Shown one piece after another: positions 54,249-60,151 of a stretch of DNA of 60,151 nt. Source of the DNA: a virus (lineage: Duplodnaviria > Caudoviricetes); IMG/VR virus record IMGVR_UViG_3300011334_000214, positions 1 to 60,151 of that record; one strand, given 5' to 3'. Each line of letters begins with the position of its first letter. The stretch's first letter is position 1. The position numbers and the translations under genes were made by a program. The notes beneath the pieces were generated by a model. That model did no database searches. It saw only the letters and a program-made list of their open reading frames with translations, and was not told the DNA's origin.

Positions 54249-54628
54249 AGCTTGTTCTGTTTAATGAATTGTTTAACAATTGGCATACGCTCAGGTTGTC
54301 GTGATACCCCTGCATACTTGCAGAAAGAATAGATGATGTCCCTCGGTGTTGATACATCACACATCACAGGCTCAGGCTCAGCAACAACAATAGCATCTCC
54401 ATCAACATAAGGGATGCGCTCGTTGATAAGGTTAGCCATAGCCACATGGTCTATTACAGTAGACATTCTGTGCCACTCGTCGACGTTGAAGTACTGCGTG
54501 TTGGTTGACCACCGAACACAAAGGAACAATGACTTGACCGTCTCGTCACCAACAGGTGTACTCAGTACACCATCAAAGTATTTACGGGCAGTCGGGTTAA
54601 TCATCAATCTGAAATCAATGTATCGCAT
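54245..54628 (-). CDS. Paralogue 3 of a family with a C-terminal FxKxxG(I/V) domain
   Basis: C-terminus DIIYSFCKYAGVSRQPERMPIVKQFIKQNKL. Confidence 0.7.
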   Translation of the reverse strand: MRYIDFRLMINPTARKYFDGVLSTPVGDETVKSLFLCVRWSTNTQYFNVDEWHRMSTVIDHVAMANLINERIPYVDGDAIVVAEPEPVMCDVSTPRDIIYSFCKYAGVSRQPERMPIVKQFIKQNKL

Positions 54629-55026
54629 AGAAATTTATTTATCCACATAGAACTTTCGGGGGTAGCGCAGATACCACTCGCCTTTGCAAACTCATACACC
54701 ACATTCACCGTGTCTGCATACGGCTTCAACTTCTCCAACATCTCAGCAAGCTCCCTCTGCTCCTCTTCCTTCTTGGCCTGCGAGTCGCTGAAGTAACCAT
54801 TGTAAATGTCAATCACCTCTTGCGAACTTGAAGCGTTGTAGAAGCTTCTCCAAAGCGAGCGACCACCCTCAGCGTGGTCCCAATCGCAATCGTTGACGTA
54901 GTCGTCCCACTCCTCCCACTCATCCTCAGGCTCGTAGCTATCTGAGTGAGGAGACCTATCAAGTTGGTCAACAAACCACGTGCGTATGTCACGTGGCAGG
55001 TCATCAAATATGTATTGTGCAATCAT
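54604..55026 (-). CDS. Paralogue 2 of the same family
   Basis: CDWDHAEGGRSLWRSFY; C-terminus NVVYEFAKASGICATPESSMWINKFL. Confidence 0.7.
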   Translation of the reverse strand: MIAQYIFDDLPRDIRTWFVDQLDRSPHSDSYEPEDEWEEWDDYVNDCDWDHAEGGRSLWRSFYNASSSQEVIDIYNGYFSDSQAKKEEEQRELAEMLEKLKPYADTVNVVYEFAKASGICATPESSMWINKFLCDTLISD

Positions 55027-55607
55027 ATCTTATAGTCTTTTAAGAATCGTTTAACCATTGAATTAATCTTGGGCTGTCGTGAGATGCCCGCATACTTGGC
55101 AAATGCCAACACCGTCTCTCGTACATTGGTGCTGTCAAATACCATCACCTCTTCCTCAGGCGTGTCGTCAGGCTCATTCGCAAAGAACTCATTAGCGAAG
55201 TGTCTGTTGATGGCATCGAACGAATCACCCTCAATGCGCAATTCTGCGCACGTCGTAGCAGCAAACGTACTGAGCTTGCGTCCGTCAAGGATAACACCCA
55301 TCTCCTCCAACCTGCTGATGGCATGAGGCGTGAGCCAACTCCTCGGTGAACCCATGAGGACCGTCGGCAATAGCTTGTGGCACTCAACGTTAACGAACTG
55401 ACCAACGTCAGCGTAGTCTACTGAAGTAGACCCAAGAATCATGTCACGTGCCCGCTCAAAGAACGGAGCGTCACTCCAACTGCATGCGTACATGTAGTCA
55501 TGCACCTGCTCACTGTCACGTAGCCTGCTTGGCTTACTGACGTAGTTCTCTACATAACTACCAACCGAAGTAGTTAGATAGAATTTTCTAAAGTTTCTGT
55601 AGTTCAT
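55023..55607 (-). CDS. Paralogue 1 of the same family
   Basis: C-terminus ETVLAFAKYAGISRQPKINSMVKRFLKDYKI. Confidence 0.7.
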   Translation of the reverse strand: MNYRNFRKFYLTTSVGSYVENYVSKPSRLRDSEQVHDYMYACSWSDAPFFERARDMILGSTSVDYADVGQFVNVECHKLLPTVLMGSPRSWLTPHAISRLEEMGVILDGRKLSTFAATTCAELRIEGDSFDAINRHFANEFFANEPDDTPEEEVMVFDSTNVRETVLAFAKYAGISRQPKINSMVKRFLKDYKI

Positions 55608-56791
55608 ACTGTATGGCTGTCTGTTAAATACATCTCACATTTTTGGCAGAAGTAGCTGTCGCTCCATATTGCAGAGTCGTCATACGCCACTTGCGATAGG
55701 CAATAGATACACTGCTTGCCACTCGTCGCTTTCTTCTTGGTGAACGCACCGCTCGTGTTGGCATAGTTCTTCCTGTTCCACGTGTCTACATGGTTCTTCG
55801 TGCTGTACGTTGTCGTCGATGGCTTGTACGTGCCACCGCCTGTGTTGTAGCTACTGCCGTGGTTGTAGCCACGTGCGCCGTACCCGCCGTTGTACCGACT
55901 GCCGTAACCCCAACCCTCGTACATATCGTCGTAATACCCGCCGTGATACTTTGGCTTCTCGTAGGTCTCGTGCAACGTCTCACTGCCCAACTCACGATGG
56001 TTGAAGTAAATCCACGCCGTCACCTCACTGCCGTCGTCAAGCGTGATGGGTATCTGCTTGCGCTCGTACCACGATGGATGACCCTCTAATCTGTCAAGGC
56101 TCGATAGCGTCACGTCGTCAACCCTAAACACGTCAACCACTACGTTGTGGCCAATGCCCTGCTTCTCAATCAAGTACGGCAGACCACTCACCACGAGCGG
56201 GTACTTGTCCTTGGTGCGACCCGACCCAACGTGCGTCGCCTTGGTGAGGTAGCTGTAGTAATTGCCGTAGCCCTTCTTGAGCGTGCCATACACCGCCATC
56301 ACGTGAGGCTCAACGACGTTGCCCTTGCTATACCACACGCCGTCGTGCTTTACCCACATCTCCTTGTTGTAGATTTGGTAGCTCTTCTGCTTGGTGTTGA
56401 ACGTAACGAATCGGCTGTCGTGCGTCTCCAAATAGTCACGCCAATCTTTGCGTGGCATATCGCTGAGCACGTCCTCCGCTAGCTCACGGGTGTCGCATCG
56501 CTTGTCGCACCCCATACCACGAATCGTGCCGTTCATCATCAGCCAATCATTGCCTGAGATGCGGAACGGATGGGTGTTGCTCGGCCCGACCTTACCCACC
56601 GTGGCGTACCTGAAGTGAGCGATGAACGGGCGTGTCGTGTCTAGCTTGGTGTACTCAGTAGACTTATAGTGCTCGACCTTCCACGTGTCTAGCCACACGA
56701 TACCTAGGCCATGAGGGTTGATGTTAGCTGATTTCTTTGCAATCGCAACGTCGAATTGCTTGCTGTTGTTCTTGATGATAATTACACACAT
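55604..56791 (-). CDS. Class II glutamine amidotransferase fused to gamma-glutamylcyclotransferase (AIG2-like) and a Zn ribbon
   Basis: Cys2 nucleophile (MC), NPHG.G, HFRYAT.G, NTHPF, NG, DT; AVYGTLKKG and LDRLEG (GGCT); terminal CxxC..CxxC. Confidence 0.9.
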   Translation of the reverse strand: MCVIIIKNNSKQFDVAIAKKSANINPHGLGIVWLDTWKVEHYKSTEYTKLDTTRPFIAHFRYATVGKVGPSNTHPFRISGNDWLMMNGTIRGMGCDKRCDTRELAEDVLSDMPRKDWRDYLETHDSRFVTFNTKQKSYQIYNKEMWVKHDGVWYSKGNVVEPHVMAVYGTLKKGYGNYYSYLTKATHVGSGRTKDKYPLVVSGLPYLIEKQGIGHNVVVDVFRVDDVTLSSLDRLEGHPSWYERKQIPITLDDGSEVTAWIYFNHRELGSETLHETYEKPKYHGGYYDDMYEGWGYGSRYNGGYGARGYNHGSSYNTGGGTYKPSTTTYSTKNHVDTWNRKNYANTSGAFTKKKATSGKQCIYCLSQVAYDDSAIWSDSYFCQKCEMYLTDSHTV

Positions 56792-57009
56792 ATTGGTTGT
56801 TGTTTAATAATTTGGTTGTTAATTGATACTGAAAAATTGTTACTCTCCACATCATAATCGAAGTCGAAAGTGTATTGATTTCCACCTGCGTAGTACGTTG
56901 ATGTCCACCGCTCACTTTTGAAAGTGGTATCGTGACGGGCAAAGAACTTATGCCCATCCCAATTAAATTCTATAATAATCCACATAGCCGTCAGCAATAA
57001 AGTCAACAC
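56782..57009 (-). CDS. Small protein with N-terminal hydrophobic segment
   Basis: 75-aa ORF within the operon. Confidence 0.5.
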   Translation of the reverse strand: MLTLLLTAMWIIIEFNWDGHKFFARHDTTFKSERWTSTYYAGGNQYTFDFDYDVESNNFSVSINNQIIKQQPICV

Positions 57010-57298
57010 TCGTCCAAAAGTTATACGCTAGCTCAATTGAACCCGCTGTCTCAGGCTCAACGTCCATCGCCGTAGGTACTACGTTGAAGTGGTAGTCCAA
57101 CCACTCATGATTGGGTAGGAAGCATACGCCATCCTGCAAGGCATCCAATGCCATCTCGCTAATCTCTTCTGACTTCGTCCATGCGTCGCCAACGTCAATC
57201 AGCCATTGCAGTTCCTCAACGCCCCACATGCTCTGAGCGGCACGAATCTCTTCTGCCATCTCAGCAAGCTGAGTAGATAGTTTCTTCTCTTGTAACAT
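56963..57298 (-). CDS. Hypothetical acidic protein
   Basis: LQ.LID.G.AW...A..AL..G.C.LP pattern. Confidence 0.65.
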   Translation of the reverse strand: MLQEKKLSTQLAEMAEEIRAAQSMWGVEELQWLIDVGDAWTKSEEISEMALDALQDGVCFLPNHEWLDYHFNVVPTAMDVEPETAGSIELAYNFWTSVDFIADGYVDYYRI

Positions 57299-59606: not shown

Positions 59607-59752
59607 TTTGCCTTGCTTCTAAATTGCTCAACAAAGAATCCAATCGCCGAGGCAACAAGCACAACGGCACATAATACTACAGGCATGCCACCGAGCACGC
59701 CGTAACATGCAAGGCACACCATGCCCGCATAAACTAATTGAGAATTACTCAT
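59603..59752 (-). CDS. Small two-TM membrane protein
   Basis: MSNSQLVYAGMVCLACYGVLGGMPVVLCAVVLVASAIGFFVEQFRSKAK; ATGA coupling at both ends. Confidence 0.6.
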   Translation of the reverse strand: MSNSQLVYAGMVCLACYGVLGGMPVVLCAVVLVASAIGFFVEQFRSKAK

Positions 59753-59910
59753 TTGATTTGCTTTTTATCGTTTGAAACGAACCACAGCGCACCAATTGCG
59801 GGAGCTGCAACGATTAACGCACGGCCAAAATTACCTTTGGCAATAAAAGCGCACGCTCCAAACAGGAGAACCAAGGCGCAAACACATAGAATTTTGTTGG
59901 TTAAGTTCAT
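59749..59910 (-). CDS. Small two-TM membrane protein
   Basis: MNLTNKILCVCALVLLFG...; A-rich leader. Confidence 0.6.
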   Translation of the reverse strand: MNLTNKILCVCALVLLFGACAFIAKGNFGRALIVAAPAIGALWFVSNDKKQIK

Positions 59911-59933
59911 AACTTTAGTTTTTTTTTTGCTTG

Positions 59934-59995
59934 GTGTACTCAATACACTTTTTTAAGGTGTACTCAATACACTTTTTAAGGTGTACTCAATACAC
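59934..59995. repeat. Three tandem GTGTACTCAATACAC palindromic sites
   Basis: At 59934, 59958 and 59981, separated by T-run plus AAG. Confidence 0.9.
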
Positions 59996-60037
59996 CAACG
60001 CCCACAAAGGGGTACGGGTGTACGGGTACGGGTGTAC

Positions 60038-60151
60038 GGGTACGGGTGTACATTGGTACGGGTGTACATTGGTACGGGTGTACATTGGTACGGGTGTACA
60101 TTGGTACGGGTGTACATTGGTACGGGTGTACTCAATACACTTTTAAGGGGT
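60038..60151. repeat. Terminal direct repeat, right copy
   Basis: Matches 1-114. Confidence 0.9.

Follow-up and report, generated by a model that had tools for sequence, protein, structure and literature searches.

Two described designs come closest to the element reported here. Cluster A mycobacteriophages, which have an L5-type repressor, carry stoperators: many short identical sites of one phage protein, dispersed at a promoter and deep within transcription units, that are proposed to stop both initiation and elongation and whose specificities differ between related phages (PMC9283540). Each is an asymmetric 13-mer that a monomer binds; they occupy short intergenic spaces, strictly follow the direction of transcription and serve lysogenic immunity. 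The KorB–OB regulon of RK2 has palindromic sites over a replicon of ~60 kb, some of them promoter-distant, which act at a distance on transcription (PMC11790492); KorB is a CTP-dependent clamp of the ParB family with partner proteins. We describe a dispersed palindrome in the virus record IMGVR_UViG_3300011334_000214 (Duplodnaviria; Caudoviricetes; the whole 60,151-bp stretch, here called the window), and it fails defining features of both systems. Like stoperators, its sites are many, short, identical and dispersed (13 in the window, 8–15 per relative genome); unlike them, they are palindromic, with an uninformative orientation and a predicted dimeric reader of an unrelated family, and 8 of the 13 fall inside open reading frames (ORFs) rather than at intergenic or promoter positions, with no lysogeny gene in the ORFs scanned. 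Like the KorB–OB sites they are palindromes of 13–16 bp, several per replicon and some far from promoters, but no ParB or KorB domain is found in the window protein or in 56 relatives of it, and the window protein has no PDB-sequence match.

Comparison across related genomes leads us to propose that the palindrome is probably the binding site of the phage's first early protein. That the palindromes are cis-sites of a genome-specific trans factor, for which the product of the junction gene at 334–870 is the best candidate, is something we infer with robust support. A genome-specific invariant palindrome is new, as are its pairing with ribozymes in relatives and its transfer into coding sequence in the window lineage; new too is its apparent co-variation with an uncharacterised first early protein, in what would be at least six specificities. 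A literature search with the motif strings, or for such an element, found no description, with subscription journals and ~1.7 million PMC articles lying outside the search.

The core motif GTGTACTCARTACAC matches exactly at nine positions (89, 907 on the minus strand, 54556, 58559, 59491, 59934, 59958, 59981 and 60126), and none of 100 dinucleotide shuffles gave any match. Allowing up to two mismatches adds only 56649, for 10 sites against a shuffle mean of 0.13. Copies 60126 and 89 share 33 identical flanking bases and are one place, the record being broken within an array, so there are eight distinct exact copies. These are the copies that a first-pass annotation, made from the letters alone, had listed, and all proved real. 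It had overlooked a second class, GTCTAY-N4-RTAGAC, at 54449, 55416, 58431 and 58806, which a generalised search has now uncovered. The generalised pattern GT[CG]TA[CT]-N2..6-[AG]TA[CG]AC has 14 matches, 13 of them distinct, whereas 200 mononucleotide shuffles averaged 0.375 matches and never gave more than 3. The 13 distinct sites are all confined to a 6,495-bp arc of the 60,037-bp circle, made up of the first 5.5 kb of the leftward operon and the junction; with the tandem trio and the 89 copy counted as one event, none of 200,000 random placements of the resulting 10 independent sites was equally tight. Exact, two-mismatch and generalised scans find nothing between 921 and 54449, in agreement with the earlier claim of an empty interval from ~1 kb to ~54.5 kb. 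The claim that density falls away from the junction did not hold, the sites being spaced fairly evenly over 5.5 kb up to the last at 54449. Elsewhere in IMG/VR the exact motif occurs in 115 stretches, roughly what chance would give in a collection of that size by our uncomputed estimate; each of the 80 stretches listed of these 115 has a single match, and no other virus among them repeats GTGTACTCARTACAC.

Eight of the 13 sites are intragenic, in five packed ORFs and two reading frames, and they encode the peptides GCTEYT, SVLSTP, KSTEYT, GVLSTP, GSTWVD, SSIGVD, GSTSVD and MSTVID. Conservation must therefore act at the nucleotide level, as had been argued earlier from VLSTP (58559, 54556) and TEYT (59491, 56649), readings that we verified. 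Positions 3 and 13 of the two arms change together (G..C or C..G); the only hybrid among the 13 sites is at 56649. Loop conservation is confined to the GTGTAC class (centre TSA), the GTCTAC class having variable loops; the perfect variant is a full odd-length palindrome, which leaves the earlier deduction of a directional site from loop conservation weak.

Over 6,647 nt of the early region the metagenome contig L216 shares 92.1% identity with the window, and it retains all eight intragenic sites at orthologous places. Their arms differ at 1 of 96 positions, against ~7.6 changes expected, with one further change in a loop: the intragenic sites are under purifying selection. L216 also has an extra site, GTCTACTCAGTAGAC, which arose through seven substitutions in a 12-nt patch of a lipoprotein-like gene whose overall identity is 94%. 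At the junction the two part company. L216 has the palindromes GTCTATTCAGTAGAC (two copies) and GTCTATCGAATAGAC there, and its junction protein is 31% identical to the window's over 103 amino acids but 57% identical to that of another locus, L218; its early genes are 92–93% identical to the window's, against 59% for those of L218. The junction gene must therefore move together with its palindromes, as a unit. In their early genes the window and L216 each retain the two palindrome classes, although either genome has a single junction type.

Such exchange of a palindrome-flanked junction module between lineages, together with a patch of seven changes in 12 nt that resembles templated replacement and with identical copies inside each genome, recalls self-propagating or recombination-driven palindromes that have no dedicated reader: short repeats homogenised by gene conversion, mediating module shuffling much as PeSL cassettes do in T4-type phages, and tolerated in ORFs. 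We consider this improbable. Eight orthologous intragenic sites are under purifying selection, the window sites are not at gene or domain borders, and a protein helix that changes with the palindrome class (below) would be left unexplained. Those promoter/stem-loop (PeSL) cassettes, repeated regulatory stem-loops in the variable early region that are tied to module exchange (PMC2839356, PMC4122927), are longer composite promoter–terminator motifs between ORFs; the window copies, unlike these, are bare 15–16-mers in ORFs with no promoter motif attached. CRISPR-repeat mimics (Racr or solitary repeat units; PMC10651486) were considered and rejected, the conserved unit here being only 15–16 nt with unconserved flanks.

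Relatives were gathered by primase (571 related IMG/VR stretches, of which the best 80 were kept). By k-mer and palindrome counts, most of those with enough upstream sequence have a palindrome of their own, 14–16 bp long and identical in its copies within one genome. The commonest is GTGTCTTCAAAGACAC, with TTTAAA and TTCGAA variants; others are the pair GTGTCGTCAGCGACAC and GTGTCGTCCGCGACAC, GTGTCGTTAACGACAC, TCCGTTATAACGGA and TTCCGACRYGTCGGAA, and the lineage-specific set further includes GTGTCTTYRAAGACAC, GTGTCG-N4-CGACAC, GAGGCGTWACGCCTC and GTCTA..TAGAC. Five complete relatives hold 8–15 copies each, against none for a reversed control pattern. Most copies in relatives fall between the genes of the early operon, and they have four settings: 2–5 nt before a type III hammerhead ribozyme (stem III); ~30 nt after a host-type promoter; preceding a tRNA-like gene; and, behind a structural gene that probably encodes the major capsid protein, as the tip of a hairpin with a T run after it. 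Conserved intragenic copies occur in the counterpart of the window's giant virion-module gene (32257–40869), in a probable terminase gene (by position) and in a helicase gene, where the 16-mer is invariant while flanking codons drift. Restriction to the early region, which the first-pass annotation had claimed, is true of the window genome but not of the relatives, where late genes and a terminator carry the equivalent palindrome. In L216 (1942–1976) and L219 (2510–2551) the palindrome is directly followed, ahead of the main early operon's first gene, by a minihelix that the window lacks. It has a T-arm-like hairpin (loop UUCGAUU; stems co-varying between GUCGG/CCGAC and CGAUG/CAUCG) and an acceptor-like stem. 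A tRNA identity for it was not adopted, neither ARAGORN nor Rfam calling one.

The best candidate for the reader is the 178-residue product of the junction gene. It has 8 close homologues, 58–91% identical, and 74 remote ones in large protein sets, and in whole relatives the early operon opens with a gene for a distant homologue (hhalign probability 95%; tblastn); a search of IMG/VR for related loci with the junction protein itself found no relative. A hidden Markov model (HMM) from alignment A2 finds a gene of this family (w334) in 18 loci and in three of five further records. The genome's own palindrome stands upstream of, inside or just after that gene in 16 of the 18 loci and likewise in the three further records; none was seen near it in L128, where the upstream sequence is cut short, or in L218. 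It stands 220–257 nt upstream of the ATG in 10 loci of the GTGTCTT class and 4–19 nt past the stop codon in seven lineages; in L176, L219 and L129 it lies within the gene itself. Three different 15-mers occupy the orthologous leader position in the window, L216 and L219.

A helix at about residues 81–95 of the window protein tracks the palindrome class. In the GTGTCTT class (10 proteins aligned) it is QKSFFYKVVK-like; GTGTCG-class proteins have KSWVYKTRKA or KPSVYKRIKV there. L216 and L218, whose palindromes have GTCTA..TAGAC in common, both show KKAWCYRLIQ, and the window protein and its close homologues show TYSYIARLQR. Modelled as a homodimer, the window protein reaches an interaction prediction score from aligned errors (ipSAE) of 0.79, against 0.00 for the best of three controls, with run agreement of at least 96% and a predicted local distance difference test score (pLDDT) of at least 83; the tool's calibration puts 20 of 30 solved homo-pairs at or above this mark, and 1 of 23 single chains. 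The modelled interface takes in residues 2–80 and 138–178 and leaves the region of the variable helix free. This supports, but does not show, that the protein dimerises.

Two weak leads come from an atlas search with this protein, DUF3102 (25 of 30 named matches, 153–154 of 256 shared features) and one Borrelia PF49 plasmid-partition cluster (score 0.91). They bear on the idea, raised earlier, of parS-like sites: loading sites of the parS or OB kind for a ParB/KorB-type clamp serving genome organisation, partition or long-range silencing. Palindromes of 14–16 bp at ~8–15 per 60 kb, many intragenic or promoter-distant, do resemble the distal OB sites of RK2 KorB with their palindromic core (PMC11790492). 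Yet no ParBc, KorB or ParA is detected in the scanned window ORFs (small ORFs only partly covered) or in 56 family members at E ≤ 0.1, 178 residues are too short for a CTPase domain plus helix–turn–helix (HTH) plus dimer domain, and the scanned gene content has no sign of lysogeny and hence no need for partition. We regard a clamp-loading role as remote.

We favour, tentatively and at a little under even odds, that the palindromes are dispersed duplex-DNA sites for the 334–870 protein that regulate the early unit. Duplex DNA is preferred because many of the variants are symmetric through their centre (GTGTACT-C-AGTACAC, GTGTCTTTAAAGACAC, TCCGTTATAACGGA and GTCTAGTACTAGAC, which fit two-fold duplex recognition) and because the candidate reader is a predicted symmetric dimer. 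A phage-encoded sequence-specific dimer, most likely the 334–870 product, would recognise the palindromes and act from dispersed sites in the manner of an operator or roadblock. One site lies in the leader of the protein's gene, three stand in tandem ahead of the main early operon and eight are spread through its first 5.5 kb, a layout that suggests autoregulation together with shut-off or roadblock control of the first transcription unit, which the protein, once made, would control and probably shut down. That the protein binds the sites, that it binds them as DNA and that the effect is repressive we infer. Of the four readings that the first-pass annotation had offered, operator or roadblock sites alone gain support, through a lineage-specific palindrome, DNA-level conservation within ORFs and co-variation with a predicted-dimer protein.

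Several observations weigh against duplex sites. The joint change of helix and palindrome is confounded by phylogeny and by physical linkage, since the two could hitch-hike in a swapped module. Within one class the arms stand 3 or 4 nt apart, a variation that a rigid dimer would not easily accommodate. Sites lie off promoters, at ~+45 in the window and −190 to −257 in relatives, with +28 at one relative promoter only. Pfam, PHROG and PDB-sequence searches reveal no fold or DNA-binding domain in the 334–870 protein, which has no match in any of them, and Pfam and PHROG are also blank for 56 family members. In relatives the palindrome is part of RNA structures (26 copies before hammerhead cores, and terminator tips), and flank pairing that includes G·U favours the sense strand. 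Two further points are as awkward for RNA hairpins as for duplex sites: both palindrome classes are kept in the window lineage despite one junction type per genome, and no early promoter was recognised beside the tandem trio. Nor does either reading explain why no transcription boundary is visible at 54449, where the site zone ends. The trio itself was tried as a host-type promoter (−33 TTG, 19 nt, TATTGAGT) and rejected, its −7 box not fitting TAnnTTTG.

The ribozymes of the relatives bring RNA into the argument. In L129 four type III hammerheads lie between early genes, at 1593–1647, 1963–2017, 3096–3151 and 5233–5287, matching RF00008 positions 1–54 (Rfam E 1.9e-7 to 2.1e-5) with CUGANGA and GAAA cores, three stems and a cleavage triplet. 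At 37.9–45.1 bits they fall below the gathering score of 48.5 and are therefore missed by default-threshold annotation: Rfam at the gathering threshold gave no match in the window and three loci, and the hammerheads emerged only under an E-value threshold. Over all loci, 26 distinct palindrome copies have a CUGANGA core 24–31 nt downstream. Hammerheads between genes of phage and prophage operons have been described before (PMC3088659), and the early-gene setting in our relatives is alike; what differs is that each of their ribozymes is preceded by an invariant genome-specific palindrome, and that the window has palindromes without a ribozyme. No hammerhead was found in the window, and a crude regular expression for the core gave two matches there, at 6084 (+) and 25185 (−), both far from the sites.

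The main rival to duplex sites, possible though on balance unlikely, is that the sites are instead read as RNA hairpins in sense transcripts, perhaps by the same early protein. A 6–7-bp stem with a 3–4-nt loop would mark or protect 3′ ends, or modulate termination, processing or translation of early mRNA; in relatives the palindrome would be the 3′-terminal hairpin left after hammerhead cleavage or termination, and in the window it would have shifted into ORFs. The fixed distance to the hammerhead core in 26 distinct copies speaks for this, as do the palindrome at the tip of the T-run hairpin after the probable major capsid gene and the copies just past the w334-family stop codon in seven lineages. 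So does a preference for the sense strand: flank pairing including G·U gives 2.08 extra pairs in sense against 0.76 in antisense, with 41 copies more stable in sense and 19 in antisense, and the asymmetric centre reads TCAA on the sense strand in 9 of 10, 10 of 11 and 8 of 11 copies in three whole relatives (our count). The GTCTAC class keeps its arms while its loop changes in length and sequence, centres of 3 and 4 nt occur in the window lineage, the arms co-vary at positions 3 and 13 with a single hybrid in 13, and the junction variant keeps a sense-strand T·G wobble in both the window and L216. Against RNA hairpins, window copies lack any extension of the stem into the flanks and are weak by themselves (−4.6 kcal/mol as RNA), the direction of the wobble is mixed in the window lineage (~4 sense, 2 antisense), symmetry running through the would-be loop is unneeded, and one copy in relatives stands ~190–257 nt upstream of the first early promoter, where there is no known transcript. 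RNA-binding proteins, moreover, rarely combine a sequence-specific stem with a free loop. Contigs from RNA libraries cover parts of 52.0–58.4 kb and some end near sites (for example 58446); we give them no weight.

Duplex and RNA recognition may both be true at once, because a DNA palindrome that lies within a transcript must also fold. A more specific and decidedly doubtful form of the RNA idea takes the palindrome as a 3′-end tag, a genome-specific stem-loop of 15–16 nt bound by the first early protein as a dimer, with tags that in the window lineage would have moved into ORFs and two interleaved codes serving swappable modules. The ends would be made by hammerheads, by the tRNA-like minihelix or by termination; GTGTAC and GTCTAC codes would let either junction module run the same early genes, and the result would be a polymorphism of specificity among lytic phages akin to heteroimmunity. 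The model for such a tag is the histone mRNA stem-loop, which is read by SLBP. Another familiar comparison is the N/nut system of lambda, where the leader of the first early gene holds a 15-nt hairpin (boxB) that is repeated downstream, and where element and protein change together between related phages. The 907 copy, 36 nt before the ATG of 334–870, and palindromes at the orthologous places in L216 and L219 are like it; ~13 copies instead of 2, most of them in ORFs, and a 178-residue predicted dimer with no evident arginine-rich peptide are not. Alignment A1 of the junction protein likewise has no visible arginine-rich N terminus.

Coordinates of the sites and of the features around them are collected in Table 1. 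We take TAnnTTTG to be the −7 promoter element of Bacteroidota. The 907 copy lies 48 nt downstream of a −7 box of this type, and 23 nt separate the end of the last trio copy from the ATG (59943) with which the main leftward operon's first gene starts.

Table 1. Palindrome sites and associated features of the window (positions on the 60,151-bp record; −, minus strand).
Feature	Position	Strand	Details
Junction gene (w334 family)	334..870	−	178 amino acids; candidate reader of the palindromes
Tandem trio	59934..59995	−	copies 59934, 59958, 59981; sense GTGTATTGAGTACAC; 23/24-bp period
Junction-array copy	89..103	−	same place as 60126..60140 (−) at the other end of the record
Leader copy of gene 334–870	907..921	−	36 nt upstream of ATG; gene-strand sequence GTGTACTCAATACAC
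Candidate promoter of gene 334–870	970..977	−	TACTTTTG, matches TAnnTTTG (presumed consensus)
Intragenic perfect copy	59491..59505	−	sense GTGTACTGAGTACAC; codons 34–39 (GCTEYT) of lipoprotein-like ORF 59337–59606
Intragenic second-class copy	58806..58821	−	sense GTCTACTTGGGTAGAC; residues 76–81 of ORF 57261–59048
Intragenic perfect copy	58559..58573	−	residues 159–164 (SVLSTP) of ORF 57261–59048
Intragenic second-class copy	58431..58446	−	sense GTCTATTGGAGTAGAC; residues 201–206 of ORF 57261–59048
Intragenic hybrid copy	56649..56663	−	sense GTCTACTGAGTACAC; residues 43–48 (KSTEYT) of GATase/GGACT-like ORF 55604–56791; identical hybrid in L216
Intragenic second-class copy	55416..55431	−	sense GTCTACTTCAGTAGAC; residues 59–64 of ORF 55023–55607
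Intragenic perfect copy	54556..54570	−	GVLSTP; ORF 54245–54628
Intragenic second-class copy, last of the zone	54449..54464	−	sense GTCTACTGTAATAGAC; ORF 54245–54628
Early leftward operon, first 5.7 kb	54245..59943	−	packed ORFs with overlapping stop and start codons and no intergenic spacers; holds the eight intragenic sites
Junction arrays	2..233, continuing 60010–60131		GTAC-based: 16-mer GGTACGGGTGTACATT, 8-mer ACGTTGGT ×9.4, 6-mer ACGGGT ×4.8

The window is a whole IMG/VR virus record with a completeness estimate of 99%. Its ends overlap imperfectly within the tandem array of the 16-mer GGTACGGGTGTACATT, so the genome is a circle of ~60.04 kb as assembled (60,037 bp), and the record is a permuted assembly broken within that array. 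The array holds 12.6 + 7.8 copies as assembled, a count to be read with the breakage of the assembly within arrays, and each unit contains the half-site GTGTAC. Simple arrays stand at the same place in relatives and are unrelated in sequence (GGGCGCAA-like in G001, (GTGTGC)n in L216, (GCTATGT)n in L219 and (GAACGAAC)n in L218). Because the window sites cluster beside repeat arrays where assembly breaks, one could see in them signals of DNA entry or packaging, such as ejection pauses or sites associated with pac or cos; relatives assemble as circles in which the sites are spread over the whole genome, such signals would not account for the link to the junction protein, and we give this very little credence.

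The rightward strand (2148–40869) encodes GroEL/GroES, lysis genes, terminase, portal, virion proteins and a 2,870-residue protein. Leftward, from 59943 down to 40863, come small membrane or lipoprotein-like ORFs, the GATase/GGACT-like protein, two DnaA-C-type HTH proteins and a Tad2-like protein, and the same strand also encodes Sak, an exonuclease, a primase–helicase and an SNF2 helicase. PHROG and Pfam detect neither a phage RNA polymerase nor a sigma factor among the scanned window ORFs, and no integrase or lysogeny gene was seen among them. The giant protein (32257–40869, +) closes the virion module, and only its C-terminal 780 residues match a PHROG, of unknown function. Its presence gives some footing to N4-type hairpin promoters, used by a virion-packaged RNA polymerase on the first-entering DNA and already suggested in the first-pass annotation: the form fits, a 6-bp stem and 3-nt loop confined to the early region. 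The protein, however, has no RNA-polymerase family match and no DxDGD motif, 8 of 13 sites are inside ORFs with only the junction copies upstream of genes, and in relatives early operons carry host-type promoters (TTTG/TAnnTTTG) while the palindrome also occurs in late genes and terminators. Such promoters are therefore highly improbable here.

The host is judged from sequence to be a member of Bacteroidota. Partial primase matches are to phages of Flavobacterium, Nonlabens, Polaribacter, Cellulophaga and Bacteroides, and promoters of the type TTTG-N17-21-TAnnTTTG, on the same presumed consensus, precede GroEL at 2097–2128. GroEL (543 residues) lies at 2148–3779 and two GroES-like proteins at 3987–4277 and 11453–12019. 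Upstream of the GroEL promoter, (A/G)TGTCGA and TTGACAT repeats fill 1872–2067, and TGTCGA/ATGTCGA repeats occupy the equivalent place in relatives G001 (1–330) and G003 (4600–4950); a second regulator, acting on the rightward genes, may bind there. At 240–310, immediately downstream of the junction gene, two tandem copies of a 47-nt unit each carry the hairpin AGCCCCT-N5-AGGGGCT, without a clear T run on either strand. A 49-bp unit is repeated 3.7 times at 1136–1319, in the interval that separates the junction gene from a small plus-strand ORF (1476–1682), and is conserved in L216 (blastn 75–85%).

The early and replication region encodes the protein with a Tad2-like (Thoeris anti-defence 2) domain at 52648–52920 (−; Pfam E 1.4e-28). 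GATC is absent from the window (1–60151) where ~224 copies are expected from base composition, GTAC (244) and CATG (194) being at normal levels; this full avoidance is probably an escape from a GATC-specific host restriction system. Two tRNA regions lie at 52171–52295 (−) and 52417–52510 (−), with a tRNA match (Rfam, 34.6 bits) that has a 67-nt insertion and a 94-nt tRNA-Ile (aat) called by ARAGORN. Contigs from other runs skip 69–83 nt at 52194–52280 or replace them with differing short sequences, so the insertion in the tRNA-like gene varies between strains.

If the favoured reading is right, a large and abundant uncultured group of ~60-kb phages, found in river, estuary and other aquatic samples and numbering 571 relatives by primase alone, controls its genes through one fast-evolving early protein and a palindromic 'address' that sits between genes, fused to ribozymes or terminators, or within coding sequence. 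It would provide a testable protein–site pair with at least six natural specificities, and with it orthogonal regulators for Bacteroidota. The seven substitutions within 12 nt would be a clear case of selection placing a nucleic-acid signal in ORFs, and the pairing of each ribozyme with an invariant hairpin would be a new context for hammerheads. It would also open a route to the timing of early genes in lytic phages of Bacteroidota, which lack Shine–Dalgarno sequences and have unusual promoters.

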